Under the pieces are notes generated by a model that had not been told where the DNA came from, did not search any database, and saw only the letters and a program-made list of their open reading frames with translations. From NCBI GenBank assembly GCA_951406725.2, contig OX597826.1, positions 33,852,001 to 33,916,000 of the forward strand: a stretch of DNA of 64,000 nucleotides, in the 5' to 3' direction. Source of the stretch: Octopus vulgaris. Its lineage: Eukaryota. Position numbers and translations under genes: made by a program. Below are positions 5,601 to 62,150 of the stretch, in pieces. Within the stretch, counting starts at the first letter, position 1. Each line of letters begins with the position of its first letter.

Positions 5601-5626
5601 AAATTCTAATGCCATATATATATAAT

Positions 5627-5886
5627 TTTTTATAATTATGAGTATAATTATAATTAGGGTTCAGCAAAAAATTTGTTTCACCACATACCAAGATTTTCTT
5701 ATGGTAGAGAAATAGCTAGTTTTAACTGCTTTTTCTAAATTTCGGTATGTGGTGAAGCAAATTTTTTGCTGAACCCTAATTATAATTATACTCATAATTA
5801 TAAAAACTTTTAAGTTTACCGATAATGGTTCTTTTAACATACCGAACTACTTGGTAAAATTATTAATTAATTAATTGATTTTACCC

Positions 5887-5890
<4 letters not shown>
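5627..5890. mobile_element. Fold-back element (63-bp arms 5627-5689 / 5744-5806); diverged relative of the 48-kb unit
   Basis: Arms differ by one mismatch; the reverse complement of 5690-5890 (AGGGTAAAATCAATTAATT...ACCAAGTAGTTCGGTATG...AGAAAAAGCAGTTAAAA...AAGAAAATCT) parallels 48031-48225. Confidence 0.7.
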
Positions 5891-5931
<41 letters not shown>

Positions 5932-46509: not shown

Positions 46510-47411
46510 TGAACCGTTAGCATCCCGGACAAAAGGCTTTGCGTCATTTCGTTCGTCTTTATGTTCCGAGTCCATATGCTACAGAGCTTGACTTTGCCTT
46601 ATATTTTTTCCAGGACGCTGAAATAGGTACCAGTCATATACTGGAGTCGATGTAATCGACCAGCCACCTTCCCCGCAATTTTCAAGCCGTGTGTCTATCG
46701 TAGGAAGGAGCATAATATATTAATCAATGACAGGGCAGCGAGTCGGCAGAATCGTTAGTACGCCGGACGAAATACTTAGCGGTGTTTCATCTGACGTTAC
46801 GTTCTGAGTTCAAATTCCGGCGAGGTTGACTTTGCCTTTTATCCTTTCGGGATCGATTAAATAAGTACCAGTTACGCACTGGGGTCGACGTAATCGACTT
46901 AATCCCTTTGCCCTTGCTTTAAAGAAATACATATCAATCAATGACCAATATTCACGTATGCTCAATGCCCAACTATTCCGTTTGAACTCAGAACGTAAAG
47001 GCGGACGAAATACCCATTTCTTTACTACCCACAAGGGGCTAAACACTGAGGGGACGAAAAAGGACAGACAAACGGATTAAGTTGATTATATCGACTCCAG
47101 TGCGTAACTGGTACTTATTTAATCGACCTCGAAAGGATGAAAGGCAAAGTCAACCTTGGCGGAATTTGACCGCAGAATGTAACGGCAGACGAAATACCTA
47201 TTTCTTTACTACCCACAAGGGGCTAAACACAGAGAGGACAGACAAGGAGATTAAGTCGATTACATCGACCCCAGTGCGTAACTGGTACTTAATTTATCGA
47301 CCCCGAAAGGATGAAAGGCAAAGTCGACTTCGGCGGAATTTGAACTCAGAACGTAATACCGCTCAGCATTTCATCCGGCGTGCTAACGATTCTGCCAGCT
47401 CGCCGCCTTAA
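46510..47411. mobile_element. SINE family B cluster (two plus copies, then a minus tandem array 46981-47411)
   Basis: Family B conserved blocks; other copies at 26764-26975, 53104-53320, 55072-55270, 62206-62402, 63297-63447 and 63805-64000. Confidence 0.8.
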
Positions 47412-47967
47412 TCGTTACTTGCGTGAATACCAATTAAGCTAACAAAAATCAACTTGGAAATGCTTCCAATTATATTGCATGAAGGTAAAAAGCCCAATAT
47501 ATTCATATATCGGAGCATCGAAGCTAACACCTACATAACACACAAATCCACAAGTAATAACACATTTCCATTCACTTCTACCATTTATATATGCTCGTAT
47601 ATGCATACATGCGTGTATATACAGGAATATAAATGAGGGTGATTGTTAACAAAAAATTCCATAGCCAATAGGAGGGCGCATATGTGGCCACTCGATCTGC
47701 TGGAAACAACAGCAAATTCTGTATCAAATTGTATTGTACTTTCTTGACAACGAATATGTTTGCTAATGTGGTCCGTGGTTCATTGTGTACAGGAAAAAGA
47801 AGAGATGGCCATGCCTGGAATCTAACTGATATTCTACTTGATTTGTGGTTATTCAATAAGTATTTAGATATTTGCACGCACAAAAAGTGCATACATATAC
47901 ATACATATATATAAATATATATATATATGCATATATATATAAATATGTATATATACATATATATATA

Positions 47968-48020
<53 letters not shown>

Positions 48021-48022
<2 letters not shown>

Positions 48023-49586
48023 CAACAATTGAGGGTAAAATTAATTAATTAATCAATTTCACCAAGTATTCAGTATGCAAAGGGACCATTTAAGGCGAAT
48101 TCAAATTATTACATTATATAAAAGGGCTTAGTAAAATAAATTACTTTGCCGCATACTGAACTCATTAGAAATAGCAGCTAAAAAAAACTTTTTTAAAACT
48201 ATTTCCAATACTTAAAGAAAATCTCTCTCATATAGTGTTTGCTCAATTCAACTCACAAAAGTATGGGGATAGAGACATTAAAAAATCAAATGCAAAGGTT
48301 ATTTGAGAACGTACGTTTCAAGATTAGTCAAACTCGACACTTCTATCATCAGCTCAGAACTCCCTGGTTTGGATTTGAAAACACTGAAAGTGGGAGCATA
48401 CCTTTTCGGCTTCAATCGCTTCTGAAGACCTGCTCGAAACTAACAGTGCCAGCAAATTCAAATATGTAAGCGAAGAATTTCTGCTCTCCCCTTTCCACCA
48501 GCGTGGGTTAAAATCAGTAAACACTGTGCTTTTTTCGGTAAAATCCGAGGCATTAAATAGAGAGAGATGAATTATAATTTCAACAATTGAGGGTAAAATT
48601 AATTAATTAATCAATTTCACCAAGTATTCAGTATGCAAAGGGACCATTTAAGGCGAATTCAAATTATTACATTATATAAAAGGGCTTAGTAAAATAAATT
48701 ACTTTGCCGCATACTGAACTCATTAGAAATAGCAGCTAAAAAAACTTTTTTTAAACTATTTCCAATACTTAAAGTATTCTGGGAGTTCTGAGCTGATGAT
48801 AGAAGTGTCGAGTTTGACTAATCTTGAAACGTACGTTCTCAAATAACCTTTGCATTTGATTTTTTAATGTCTCTATCCCCATACTTTTGTGAGTTGAATT
48901 GAGCAAACACTATATGAGAGAGATTTTCTTTAAGTATTGGAAATAGTTTTAAAAAAGTTTTTTAGCTGCTATTTCTAATGAGTTCAGTATGCGGCAAAGT
49001 AATTTATTTTACTAAGCCCTTTTATATAATGTAATAATTTGAATTCGCCTTAAATGGTCCCTTTGCATACTGAATACTTGGTGAAATTGATTAATTAATT
49101 AATTTTACCCTCAATTGTTGAAATTATAATTCATCTCTCTCTATTTAATGCCTCGGATTTTACCGAAAAAAGCACAGTGTTTACTGATTTTAACCCACGC
49201 TGGTGGAAAGGGGAGAGCAGAAACTCTTCGCTTACATATTTGAATTTGCTGGCACTGTTAGTTTCGAGCAGGTCTTCAGAAGCGATTGAAGCCGAAAAGG
49301 TATGCTCCCACTTTCAGTGTTTTCAAATCCAAACCAGGGAGTTCTGAGCTGATGATAGAAGTGTCGAGTTTGACTAATCTTGAAACGTACGTTCTCAAAT
49401 AACCTTTGCATTTGATTTTTTAATGTCTCTACCCCCATACTTTTGTGAGTTGAATTGAGCAAACACTATATGAGAGAGATTTTCTTTAAGTATTGGAAAT
49501 AGTTTTAAAAAAGTTTTTTTAGCTGCTATTTCTAATGAGTTCAGTATGCGGCAAAGTAATTTATTTTACTAAGCCCTTTTATATAA
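48021..49586. mobile_element. Head-to-tail plus inverted array of a ~557-bp HHR-bearing unit (Penelope-like / retrozyme-like) in (AT)n
   Basis: Unit 48021-48578 restarts at 48579 and runs to 48774; from 48781 the sequence is its reverse complement, again running through the head-tail junction near 49123; copies differ only at a few positions. Confidence 0.85.
48789..48841 (+). ncRNA. Minimal type I hammerhead motif (also 49345-49397 plus and 48304-48356 minus)
   Basis: TGAG CTGATGA [TAGAAGTGTCGAGTTTGACTAATCTT] GAAA C GTAC G TT| CTCA; palindromic ACGTACGT stem III, GUU triplet; stem II closes U-U rather than G-C. Confidence 0.65.
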
Positions 49587-49611
49587 TATATATATATATA
49601 TATATTGTATG

Positions 49612-49664
<53 letters not shown>

Positions 49665-50126
49665 GTATATATGTATGTATGTATATATATATATATGTTT
49701 GAATGTATATACATATATAGATATATACTTGTATATATATAAATGTATATATGTATAAATATATGAGTTTGTATGTATACGCACACACACATAAATATAT
49801 ATATATATATATGCATTCATGAATGCATATGCAAGTAATATATATGCGGTTGTGCGTTTCATATGAATATATGCATCCCAAAACAGTGACCTCAGGCAGA
49901 CGTCTATATATATACTTTCAAGATTACCATCAGCACGTATGTAGATCTTACACACACTCCCTCGCATATATATATACATCAATAGACACGAGACAAGCAA
50001 CAAATATGCATACACACATATATGCATGCATACACACACACGCGCGAGCATACATTTATACGAGTGTGAGTCAGAGAGTGGTGGTGCAATTTTTATTTGC
50101 ATTACTTTTTAACTCAGTCTTATACA

Positions 50127-53564: not shown

Positions 53565-53734
53565 ACTTACATTATTTACATTTGACAGATATTTGTCCTC
53601 TTCTTGTTTGTTGTTAACACAACGTTTCGGCTGATATACCTTCCAGCCTTCATCAGGTTTCTTGGGGAAATTTTGAACCTAGGTTCTCATTCCTAATGTA
53701 CTTTTCGATGTTGTTGCTGTTGTTATTATTGTCA

Positions 53735-56090: not shown

Positions 56091-59000
56091 AAATAGTAAA
56101 ATAATCAAAGAACTGAAAACCACAGAGCTCAAAATGGACCGCCGACCATACCGCCCAAGAATCAAAATAGACGAAACAATAACACCAATTATAAACAGCA
56201 TAAACCTAGCCGTCACAGAACTAATAGCCACTGAAACAAAAAGCGATATCACTGAGCTAAATGACTTAATATACGCAGCAGCCACTGCAGCCACAAAAGA
56301 AGCTGAATACTCACTCAAACCCATCCAAACAGGAGTACCACCACCCAAACAAACTGTGGATAAATAACATCCAAAACAAAATACAAAAAATGAGAAAAGA
56401 TCTGTCGATTCTTAATGAAATCAGCAAACAATCAACGCTACTGAGCAACAAAAAGAAAACAAAAATACTCCGCAAATATAACATCACAGAGAAAGATTTA
56501 CCTGAAATAAAAGAAAAGCTGAAGCAAGATATCCTTCCCAAAGCACAAAGGATCCGCCGGTACGAGAAACGCCAGCGCTTCTTTGAACAAAACAAAAAGT
56601 TCAACTCCAGCCCCAAAAAGTTCTACCAAGAACTTGGCAAAAATAAAATAGAAGTCACAGCAGCACCAACGGCAGAAGAATTGGAAGAATTCTGGAGAGA
56701 AATATGGTCGGCGAACGAACAACCAAAAAAAGGAGTATCAAAATAACAAACTCGGCATCTGAACAACTTTGGACCCCCATAACAACTGAAGAGGTCACCC
56801 AGGCACTGCAAAGACTAAGCAACTGGAAGGCACCTGGGCATGACAAGATCCCCAACTTCTGGTTGAAATATCTAACAGGAATGCACAAAAAGCTGGCTGA
56901 AAACTTTAACAACATACTAGCAGAGCCAGAGACAATGCCTGAATGGCTCACGAAGGGGAAAAACCTCTTAATTCCCAAATCAAATGAGACAGCAAAACCA
57001 GAATACTACAGACCAATAACCTGCCTCCCAACAATGTTCAAGGCATTTACTGCAGTGATATCGCAAAGGTTGAACAAGCACCTGGACGAAAACAACCTGT
57101 TCCCAGAAGAGCAGAAAGGATGCCGCAAAGGCTCATATGGCTGTAAAGATCAACTATTGATTAATAAAGCCATAACTGAAGACAGCCACAGAAAGAAGAA
57201 AGGCCTCAGTATGGCCTGGATTGACTACAAAAAGGCGTTTGATAGCATCCCCCACACATGGATCCTCGAAACACTAGCCATTAACAAAGTAGCACCAACA
57301 ATCATAAAATTCATAGAGCACTCTATGAATAAATGGCAAACAGTCCTACACCTCCAAACAAAAGAGGGACTCATGAAAACCAAAGACATCCCCATTAGAA
57401 GAGGAATATTCCAGGGAGACACGCTCTCTCCACTCCTTTTCTGCTTGGCACTGTCACCTCTATCTGCTATACTAAATAGAACTGGATGCAGATATAAATG
57501 TTACGGCAAAACGATCAGCCACCTTTTATATATGGATGACCTAAAACTATACGCTGCAAATGACAAGCAGCTGGAAACACTATTAAAGACAGTTCATGGA
57601 TTTACCAAAGAAATAGATATGAAATTTGGATTAGAAAAATGCGCCAAAGTAACCCTGAAAAGAGGAAAACTAGTTAAGAGTAGCAACATCAGACTAGATA
57701 AAACCAATGAAATAAAAGAATTAGACCAAAGCCAAACTTACAAATACTTAGGAATCCATGAACTAGATAAGACACAACACACACAAATGAAAGAGAAAAT
57801 AAAAAAAGAATATTATAGACGAGTTAGATCAATACTAAAAACAGAGCTCAATGCTAAAAACAAGATAATAGGTATTAACACTTTAGCTGTCCCAGTTATA
57901 AGTTACAGCTACAATATCCTTAACTGGACACGAAATGAACTGACCAAAATAGATAGGAAAACAAGAAAAATAATGACAGGATCTAGGATGCATCACCCAA
58001 AATCTGACATAGAAAGACTATATATACAACGTATAGAAGGTGGTAGAGGCCTTATACAACTGCAAAAATTACTATAAAATAACCACCATAGGACTGCAAA
58101 AATATCTACTTCAGAAGGAAGGAAAACTGATACAAATAGCGGCAAAACACGAGCAAAACAAAAAACTGTTCTCAGTATTTAAGGAAGCTGACAAATACAA
58201 ACAAGAAATCATACCACCTAATAAATATGAAGAAGAAGAAGAAGATGAAGAAACAACAAAAGCTATAAAACAAATGAAATCCAAACTAAAAATAGAACAG
58301 CAACGAACCATGATAAAACGATGGCAAGAAAAGCCCCTTCATGGTAAATACTGGACTAAACTAAACGCAAAAGAAATAGACAAAGAAAAATCCCAGCAAT
58401 GGTTGAGAAACTCAGGACTCAAAGCAGAAACAGAGGGATTTTTAATTGCAGCACAAGACCAAAGCCTCCCCACCAGAAATTACCAAAAACATGTAATGAA
58501 AAGAAATATTACAAGTAACGGCAGAATATGTGGAGATGGACAAGAAACAATAAATCATATCTCTAGCTGCCCAGTCCTGGCTAAGAAGGAATATATTCAC
58601 AGACATGACAGAGTTGGAACCTACATACATTATGGAATAACAACAGAAAAAAGATGGTATAGGCACACACCAGAAAAGGTCACAGAAAACGAGAAAGCAA
58701 CCATACTCTGGGATATGCCGATACACACAGATAGAGAAATTAAGGCCAACAGGCCAGATATAGTTGTCAGAGATCATGAAGAAAAAAATGCTTTCTAATT
58801 GATGTATCAATACCGGCAGATGACAACGTGTCTCTAAAAGAAATAGAGAAACTCTCAAAATACAAAGACCTAGAAATAGAGGTAACCAGAATGTGGAATC
58901 TGAAAACAGAAACAATTCCTATCATAGTAGGTGCATTAGGCATGATAAAAAAATATTCAGACAAATACATAACAAAAACACCAGGACTTACAAACACATA

Positions 59001-59182: not shown

Positions 59183-61670
59183 AGAAGATAGGAAAAACAA
59201 CAGTTACTGTAAAGTCTGTACCATCAAAAGAAGAAGTGCAAGGATTTTGGAATAAAATTTGGGCAGAAGAAAAAACACACAGCGAAAAGGCCCCCTGGAT
59301 TGATAGAATATCTAAAGAACTGGACTCCTTAGAAGAGCAAAAGTGGGAGGGTGTCAAGGTAGAAGATATAAGATCTGCTCTCAGGAGGTGAAGCAAATGG
59401 AAGTCTCAAGGAAAGGATAAAATCCCTAACTTTTGGTTGAATGCCTTTCCAGAGAGCCATGAACTGCTAGCAGAACTTTACAATGATACTTTGCAACACC
59501 CTAGTAGGATGCCTCCTTGGTTAGTTAATAGGTTAACATTCCTGCTTCCAAAAAGTGAAGAAACAAATGAACCCAAAAACTATAGACCCATAACCTGCTT
59601 AACAACTATGTATAAAACACTAACATCTGTCCTGACGGAATATACCTATAGTTTTTTGACAGACAGCAGCATATTCCCTAATGAACAGAAAGGATGTAAA
59701 CGTGGATCCTACGGTTGTAAAGATCAACTACTCATCAATAAGATGATCTTAGAAGATTGTCACAAACGACACAAAAACTTATCAATAGCCTGGATAGACT
59801 ATAAAAGGCTTTTGATAGCCTACCACATAGCTGGATTAATAAATGCCTAGAAATGTATAAGATAGCACCTGCTCTGCGAAACTTTTTGTCTGTAAGTATG
59901 AGATCATGGAGAACCACACTAACTTTGAACAGTGACAATGAATCTCTAAATGCTGGTGATGTAAAAATTTCATGTGGCATTTTCCAGGGTGACTCACTAT
60001 CACCGCTCCTCTTCTGTTTAGCCTTAATACCTCTCTCAAAACCTAATACCTCTCTCAATGATGCGCAGTACGGATATAAAATGTTTGATAAAAATATAAA
60101 TCATCTCATTTACATGGATGATTTAAAGCTCTTTGCAAAAAATGACCAACAACTCAAGGGCTTACTAGCGATTGTCAAACAATTCAGTGATGACATCAGA
60201 ATGCAATTTGGCCTCGATAAATGCGCAAAAGCTACCTTTATCAAAGGAAAAATGACAGAAACATCTAACGTTAACCTTGACCAGCAGAATGTCATAAAAG
60301 AATTAGACCCAGCAGAGAACTACAAGTATCTAGGGGTAATTGAAGGAGAAGGAATAAGGCATTCAGAGATGAAGGAAAGGATCAGGAGAGAATGCTATCG
60401 CAGAGTAAGAGCAATACTCAAGACAGAGCTGAATGCGAGAAACAGGATCGAAGCGATCAATGCATTAGCCATACCAGTCGTGACTTACAGTTTCAGTATC
60501 GTTAACTGGTCAATTACTGAAATATGTAATCTTGACAGAAAAATACGAAAACTGTTGACAATGCATAGAATGCACCACCCTAAGGCAGATACAGAACGAC
60601 TTTATCTGCCAAGAAAAGAGGGAGGCCGTGGACTTTTACAACTGGCAATAACAATGAAGATTGCTACAATTGGCCTAGACACCTACCTGAAAAACTCTGA
60701 GGACTGGATGTTAAAACTTGTCTCAAAACATGAAAACAAGAAAGCATCATACTCAGTAACAAAACAGGCAAAGGAATACCTAAGTGAATTCCGAATACAA
60801 CAAATTTCGGAATTAGAGATAGACATACAAGAAACAGGCACAGAAAAAGCTAAGCGCATGAAAACCCGTGCTAAATCTGCAGCCTTAGATATTCTGAATG
60901 ATAAATGGCAAGAAAAACCTCTCTATGGCAAATACCCAAAGAGAGCAAATAATGCAGATGTTGACAAAGCCCTGACCCATCAATGGCTAATGGCCTCTGG
61001 CTTAAAATCTGAAACAGAGGGGTTTATCATAGCAGCTCAAGATCAATGCCTACCAACAAGAAACTACCAGGCCAACATATTAAAGATCAGAAGCAGTCCA
61101 ACGTGTCGTGTATGCAAGCAACAAAATGAAACCATTGACCATGTGGTCTCCAAGTGCAGTCTTCTAGCGCCTACAGAGTATCTCAACAGGCACGATAGAG
61201 CTGCACAATATATTCACTGGGTAATCTGTAAAAACCTGGATTTGCCCCATGAAAAAAACTGGTGGGAACACAAACCACCCCCAGTGCTTGAAAATGACCA
61301 CATCTCACTCCTCTGGAACTTCACCATTCAAACTGACAGAAAGATAGATGCAAATAGGCCAGACATCATATTGAAAGACTTCAAACAAAGAACATGCCTC
61401 CTCATTGATATGACTGTCCCAATCGATATAAACGTATCTGTCAAGACCTACCAAAAACTGAGCAAATATAAAGATCTTGAAATAAAAATCAGCAAAATGT
61501 GGAAGCTGAAGACTAAAACAATACCTGTTGTTATAGGAGCCCTGGGAATGATAGCAAAAGGGGCAGATAGCTACCTAACTCAGATACCAGGAAACCCAAA
61601 AATGGCAGAAATTCAAAAGATAGTGCTCATGGGAACTGCTCATATCCTACGCAAAATACTTTCTATGTAA
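59183..61670 (+). pseudogene. RT + CCHC + RLE ORF with a stop near 59388 and a frameshift near 59806; open from 59853 to 61670
   Basis: GIFQGDSLSPLLF, YMDD, YKYLG, CRVC...HVVSKC, RHD, NRPDII, LIDMTVP, KYKDL. Confidence 0.92.
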
Positions 61671-62050: not shown

Positions 62051-62067
62051 TATAATAATAATGATGA

Positions 62068-62150
62068 TGATGAAGGCTGGAGGGTATAACAGCCGGAACG
62101 TTGTGCTAATAACAAGATGAGAACAAATATCCGTCAAATGTAAATGATGC
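62068..62150 (+). mobile_element. Decayed tail of the HHR-SINE family seen at 53565-53855
   Basis: TGATGAAGGCTGGAGGGTATAACAGCCGGAACGTTGTG...ACAAATATCCGTCAAATGTAAAT; core C3 lost and GAAA changed to GGAA. Confidence 0.7.

Follow-up and report, generated by a model that had tools for sequence, protein, structure and literature searches.

Positions 48021–49586 of the window, the whole 64,000-nt stretch of Octopus vulgaris DNA that was analysed, are best read from the sequence as a single young insertion of a genome-wide non-coding family, with two diverging arms between (TA)n tracts. The family belongs, by its sequence features, to the non-LTR retrozymes, and carries a clear insertion footprint of Penelope-like elements (PLEs) with a tail about three times the usual length. 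We hold with considerable confidence that this retrozyme is likely mobilised in trans by a PLE, from two fixed start sites ~95 nt apart on one, probably circular, RNA. The sequence basis of the proposal is established and comprises family size, (TA)n targets, two fixed ends and their pairing on opposite arms, arm likeness, a predicted cut site that is read through, and a ribozyme core and fold that are conserved.

Anatomy of the insertion and its family

Unit positions are numbered m1–m556 after the predicted 556-nt monomer at 48838..49393 on the plus strand. The left arm (48021..48774, minus strand, read from 48774 down to 48021) runs from m91 to m556 and then from m1 to about m286/291, and its outer end, ..GTTGAAA followed by a TA repeat, is the family-wide E291 end. 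Six filler nucleotides at the inversion point (48775..48780), the initial letters of which form a short hairpin with the left-arm end, separate it from the right arm (48781..49586, plus strand), which comprises m500–556, one full unit and m1 to about m193/196 and stops at the family-wide E196 end (..CCCTTTTATATA, then a TA repeat). On the plus strand lie also a structured end module, m115–291 (48952..49128), and the ~95-nt 'tail' separating the two fixed ends, m197–291 (49034..49128). The (TA)n target tracts occupy 47891..48020 on the left (TRF and sequence) and 49580..49812 on the right (TRF); with (TA)n on both flanks of insertions, any target-site duplication is masked. A short interspersed repeat occurs nearby, at 46700–47400, in three or four diverged copies that face either way.

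Exact-match analysis found 48021–48186 repeated at 48579–48744 with a period of 558, and 48781–49029 recurring at 49337–49586 with a period of 556–557. Positions 48110–48774 are the reverse complement of 48928–49590 over 665 nt, with 99.1% identity, four mismatches and two gaps, and the two arms thus differ at few sites. The initial annotation had reported head-to-tail copies of period 558 and a large inverted copy, and both agree with these matches; it had seen the inversion itself and missed its meaning as the two-start-site footprint of a PLE. Its finding of no recognisable protein likewise stands, as no non-repeat ORF of at least 100 codons overlaps the locus and the longest such frames fall below 100 codons. 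Because the closest other array seen (L031) differs from the window locus at only ~6 of 556 positions, the window insertion is taken to be young.

The monomer has 1652 candidate places in the genome (2.8 Gb in 227 contigs), 40 of which were scored. Exact E291 ends (m~291, then TA repeats) number 837 and exact E196 ends (m~196, then TA repeats) 486, against none for the reversed controls of either, giving a family of at least 837 insertion ends with units of 545–560 nt. Subfamilies span ~84% to 99% identity. Units adjoin directly in arrays of up to ~16 head-to-tail copies with no ORF between them. The family presents several of the features by which retrozymes are recognised: tandem units each with a type I motif, dispersal over many loci, a GC content below 50%, and neither coding capacity (no non-repeat ORF of at least 100 aa) nor framing by LTRs, as the units abut. 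Family, footprint and array data all support the initial description of a retrozyme-like, non-coding, young and PLE-dependent element. Literature searches, mostly of open texts without supplements, found neither a 556-nt family nor two-armed retrozyme insertions described. Among the subfamilies, one of 545 nt (L369, L373, L379) lacks 17 nt at the tip of a long hairpin, where a UUCG-like loop is left, and a divergent one (L078, G000:C1:91804837-91806829) has a longer, fully paired stem I.

Predicted hammerhead ribozyme and monomer fold

Three identical type I hammerhead motifs were found at the locus. The two on the plus strand, at 48789..48841 (motif at 48793) and 49345..49397 (motif at 49349), have predicted cuts after 48837 and 49393, 556 nt apart, where the initial annotation had placed them; the third, which it had not counted, lies on the minus strand at 48304..48356 (CTGATGA from 48352; predicted cut after 48308). 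In the motif, stem I (UGAG/CUCA plus a longer distal helix) is followed by CUGAUGA, and stem II (a U-U base, AGA/UCU and GUC/GAC) by GAAA; stem III has 2 bp and a palindromic GUAC loop, and a GUU triplet precedes the predicted cut. The U-U at the stem II base and the ACGTACGT palindrome are present as first described. The caveat raised at that time over the U-U has an active precedent in the axolotl HHR_Amex2, which has the same U-U helix II base and a 2-bp helix III with a tetraloop and for which the open text of Cervera & de la Pena 2020 (PMC7229834) gives 22% cleavage of the monomer and far more efficient cleavage of the dimer.

Rfam returned no hammerhead match for the locus, either at the gathering score or at E≤10. 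The core pattern was matched 2025 times genome-wide and once in the reversed control, and the motif is therefore commoner than chance. At 11 core positions in 84 arrays, one change was counted in 924 array-positions, against 3.7% elsewhere, and the core is invariant over subfamilies down to ~84% identity. Variation within the motif is mostly confined to N7 (U/C/A), the stem II base (U-U, A-A, A-U) and loop II. The predicted cut triplet at 248 scored junctions is GUU in 235 and GUA in 13 (as in L369), never NUG. Since these counts come from related arrays rather than from independent events, and since the end module is conserved to about the same degree as the ribozyme, the conservation of the core is support, not proof, for a ribozyme.

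The predicted active fold (-8.3 kcal/mol) lies 4.7 kcal/mol above the local minimum (-13.0), and the palindrome duplex has -9.8 kcal/mol, two copies pairing through the palindrome when folded without constraints. In these models a double hammerhead formed via the ACGUACGU palindrome would be the likely cleavage form. The monomer as a whole (34% GC) has a predicted circular fold of -136.6 kcal/mol with a z of -4.3, and none of 60 shuffles was equally low; such a highly self-paired fold is a further feature of retrozymes. Among 14 units across subfamilies, 7 of 158 pairs vary on both sides, with 12 cells against 3.4 in shuffled data, a count for which the structure was taken from the same alignment and the units are related. 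A hammerhead-like core of another family (CUGAUGA, a 7-bp stem II and GAAAC) lies elsewhere in the window at 53616–53656 on the minus strand, with a second, degenerate copy at ~62065–62110 on the plus strand; stems I and III close poorly.

Two fixed ends and the template RNA

Insertions were sampled from their fixed ends. The sample took in 60 of the 61 E291 matches that come first on contig C1, and 40 E196 matches without an exact E291 partner (35 on C1, 5 on C2); two of the latter were dropped, one unoriented and one a segmental duplicate, leaving 98 end-anchored loci. Two arms are present at 73 of these, pairing E291 with E196 in 72 and E291 with E291 in one (L078), and never E196 with E196. 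Seen from E291 (n = 60), the inverted arm ends at m191–207 in 44 loci and at m286 in one, and is lacking in 15; seen from E196 (n = 38), it ends at m290–293 in 28 and at m196 in none, and is lacking in 10. The 25 loci scored as one-armed include at least two (L110, L179) with small or complex inverted pieces that the script missed. The start sites are not simply the best TA-like 12-mers, a candidate that was rejected because neither is among the top-scoring windows; E196 holds TATATA, and E291 only TATA.

PLE insertions carry an inverted 5'-truncated copy plus a tail at one end only, as the open text of PMC8557442 describes. In the anole PLE, reverse transcription begins internally at two positions and the tail corresponds to the gap between them, and the protein cuts and extends both target strands in vitro (PMC11167929, open text). 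Two coding PLE families in the octopus genome also have two alternative (TA)n ends, 32 nt apart. Judged by its sequence, the two-armed pairing of E291 with E196 is this 'tail' footprint: an inverted copy with a one-sided tail is seen at 72 of 73 two-armed loci, and TA repeats, an AT-rich or microsatellite target, adjoin the far end in 93 of 98 cases. The tail, as the gap between the two fixed ends, is ~95 nt.

Between the arms of one locus the mean difference is 1.2%, and the median difference to other loci is 5.2%, and at 41 of 56 loci no more than two other loci are closer than the partner arm. At all 24 multi-unit loci the units are several-fold closer to one another than to the median other unit, and three of these loci have a unit that is identical at aligned positions to one present in another locus. 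Array L145 differs by 0.08% within itself and by 3.0% from the nearest other locus. Eighteen strictly private variants are fixed in every copy of their own array, and among these there is no A>G excess that would speak for fixed RNA editing (A>G 3, T>C 2). Adjacent units are no closer than distant ones (nine arrays, p=0.95), and the arrays have therefore not mainly grown stepwise. Of 171 arms, 88 run across the predicted cut site and three end no more than 5 nt away from it, where 2.8 would be expected. A single length is shared by all 248 junctions scored, with a search pattern that requires intact flanks and leaves badly damaged junctions uncounted. A cleaved linear monomer as template was therefore rejected, since the cut site is read through with no excess of stops and a single junction length. 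Arm likeness, read-through and star-like divergence together suggest that at each insertion one RNA was likely copied from both target strands. We lean towards a circle as that RNA because of the near-exclusive use of two different start sites and the star-like long arrays.

The mechanism that we propose would begin with transcription of an array and self-cleavage of the RNA, likely as a double hammerhead, to yield a 556-nt monomer that would be ligated into a circle. The PLE would nick the (TA)n tract on both strands, and a dimer of its RT/GIY-YIG protein would prime one antisense cDNA at m~291 and another at m~196, either of which could lap the template more than once. Repair joining the two cDNA 3' ends would produce the inversion, and a single retained cDNA would leave a one-armed, 5'-truncated copy.

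A rather unlikely alternative keeps the same element and the same PLE-type twin start and takes as template an uncleaved multimeric read-through transcript, with the ribozyme weak or acting later and no circle copied. According to the open text of PMC11167929, the anole PLE mainly uses RNA that has not been cleaved, and mutating the ribozyme does not abolish insertion; because of this result an uncleaved multimer explains arm likeness, read-through and unit distances nearly as well. The alternative is also kept alive by the pattern of one array, L041 (G000:C13:6665370-6668136), in which two variant sets alternate with a period of 2, as would arise if the template was dimeric or if two units were duplicated later. 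Weak stems II and III, the GUU triplet and the coinciding inner ends of arms point the same way, as do the predicted Xenopus retrozyme dimers, eight of nine of which were uncleaved in the open text of Li, Clavereau & Pollet (Li et al. 2026, bioRxiv 10.64898/2026.07.22.740005). However, arrays of 9–16 near-identical, star-like units such as L145 need a single-unit origin at some step, the ribozyme core has stayed invariant across subfamilies, and the same start site was used twice in only one of 73 two-armed loci, though a multimer has many sites on offer.

Fold-back could also account for the inversion, if the first cDNA snapped back, was copied as the second arm and joined the target at the TATATA of m~190, and this we regard as quite unlikely. 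In 26 of 73 loci the inner arm ends do lie within 15 nt of each other, where shuffling gives 5.5 loci on average and 14 at most, and the short hairpin lies at the inversion point of the window locus. However, the E196 arm extends upstream beyond the E291 arm, and so holds more template, in 30 of 72 loci (equal in 30, less in 12), and fold-back is therefore not the general cause. At the window locus, the right arm has 806 nt and the left arm only ~660 nt upstream of m196, and 10 of the 38 loci anchored at E196 have one arm only. The coinciding inner ends, whose hot spots at m40–60 and m398–410 were picked after the data were seen, may come from shared pause sites, broken templates or some fold-back.

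It is very unlikely that monomers inserted singly and then grew by unequal exchange like satellites, the scenario proposed in the open text of Li et al. 2026. Variants common to blocks or to alternating units in a few arrays (L032, L037, L041) would fit such growth, but neighbouring units are no more alike than distant ones, the two arms can each hold several units with common variants, and both outer ends remain fixed.

Returning to the circular template, we tentatively go one step further, in that each insertion may be the fossil of a double rolling-circle reaction, in which a PLE dimer holds one 556-nt ribozyme-made circle at two fixed sites 95 nt apart and copies it from both strands of the cut target, either RT being able to lap it many times. 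The ~190-nt end module would then mark a clan of protein-free circular RNAs that parasitise a long-tail PLE.

Candidate partner elements and related systems

The initial annotation had recommended a search for an autonomous PLE sharing the terminal sequence, and this search found PLEs in the genome and no match of the unit to any terminus inspected. It covered PLEs other than Naiads and scored 150 of 6136 candidates from a GIY-YIG family search, supplemented by three further protein searches. Two coding PLE families have RT plus GIY-YIG frames of 781 and 775 aa in many intact copies, and we take both to be Neptune-like from their Cys linker motif. Their tails are 32 nt, and the ~95-nt tail seen here matches neither family. 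Both families are very young, with dozens of near-identical copies (L181-L196, L291-L310); the 781-aa family has an upstream frame of 333–479 aa with no Pfam match, and the 775-aa family a hammerhead-like motif with a CCGAAGA core. In further PLE families (L341-L360, L353, L357), two ends lie roughly 50–60 nt apart as judged by eye, and tail length therefore differs between families.

BLAST and profile scans found the unit's end module as the element's own terminus at none of 120 PLE loci. Profile matches to the module occur at 4 of the 120 and at 2 of 8 further loci and, where inspected, are separate neighbouring insertions. Matches at L118, L198 and L296 were considered as PLE termini and rejected, being short sister elements inserted beside PLEs, and those at L325/L366 and L365 lie more than 1 kb past the ORF. 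No RT-GIY-YIG ORF is joined to any array inspected, nor is a PLE ORF joined upstream at the sister-family loci. The m115–291 module is ~70% alike in several other short non-coding families of the same two-armed form, and it is likely the part that the RT recognises. An older two-armed copy of a sister family, ~70% alike to m123–294, lies in the window at 5621–5907 and ends in TA and TTA repeats; this family has 2764 candidates in the genome.

It could be held that the unit derives from a coding PLE, as its pseudo-LTR (pLTR) or 3' end, with the loci being PLE copies truncated at the 5' side, as the PLE footprint and the relation of Xenopus retrozymes to pLTRs in the open text of Li et al. 2026 might suggest. 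This is highly improbable: up to 16 units follow head to tail without an intervening ORF, the PLE ORF remnants of 10 retrieved loci are separate from the arrays wherever positions were compared, and among the loci inspected no PLE terminus matches the unit. The initial annotation had named such a pseudo-LTR origin as a result that would overturn its reading, and no PLE ORF was found joined to an array.

Contigs from 4 of 19 public runs cover the unit, with TA repeats joined at m291 in three of the four, near m193 in one, and an opposite-strand joint in one; they bear on the unit and its end junctions, the window locus with its flanks being known from the assembly. Because these runs are not on record as RNA, nothing is inferred from them on expression. 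A fold-back read or assembly artefact, which the initial annotation had also raised and which a 99% palindrome between microsatellites at a locus known from the assembly alone might suggest, is extremely unlikely, since the arms are of unequal length with four mismatches and two gaps and stop at distinct family-wide sites, dozens of loci repeat the architecture, and both TA-joined ends and the opposite-strand joint occur in public runs.

The family resembles the metazoan non-LTR retrozymes in its non-coding tandems, GC below 50%, one type I hammerhead per unit, self-paired fold and coexistence with PLEs (PMC7229834, open text). The same text gives units of 150–450 bp, against 545–560 nt here, reports expression and circles, whereas the present family is known from DNA sequence, and does not describe insertions of two arms with a pair of fixed ends; it offers PLE mobilisation only as a proposal. 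The working definition of vertebrate retrozymes, two consecutive units with complete type I motifs, describes these arrays, whose unit length falls within the vertebrate range of 51–972 bp (Li et al. 2026, open text). That text draws the retrozyme-PLE link from pLTR similarity and co-occurrence, and suggests local tandem growth. Here, in contrast, a pLTR match was sought and not found, the insertion footprint provides the link, and the arrays argue for one-step synthesis.

EN+ PLEs (Neptune, Poseidon, Naiad) share with the family AT-rich or (TA)n targets, partial tandems, an inverted 5'-truncated copy and a one-sided tail, for which 30–40 nt is published against ~95 nt here (open texts of PMC8557442 and PMC11167929). 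Unlike these elements, the family has no ORF, and its arms often exceed one unit. L1 twin priming also makes inversions through priming on both target strands, with a linear poly(A) RNA and a first cDNA that stops near the second priming site. In contrast, the E291 arm here usually passes m196, often by whole units.

The class of element is known already, and it is the anatomy described here that makes retrozyme mobilisation directly testable. Re-entry of retrozymes into DNA is proposed in the open literature as the action of a PLE RT on a circle, and the octopus family would record that reaction in hundreds of young copies. It gives exact predictions, namely RT starts at m~196 and m~291, a cut after m556, read-through, and an enzyme-binding RNA module. 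With intact coding PLEs in the same genome, the published in vitro PLE assay offers a test both of circle against multimer and of the partner enzyme. Elsewhere in the window, two LINE-type RT frames on the plus strand (56647–58074, RVT_1; 59805–61667, RVT_1 with zf-RVT) lie between AAT repeats and are unrelated to the retrozyme.
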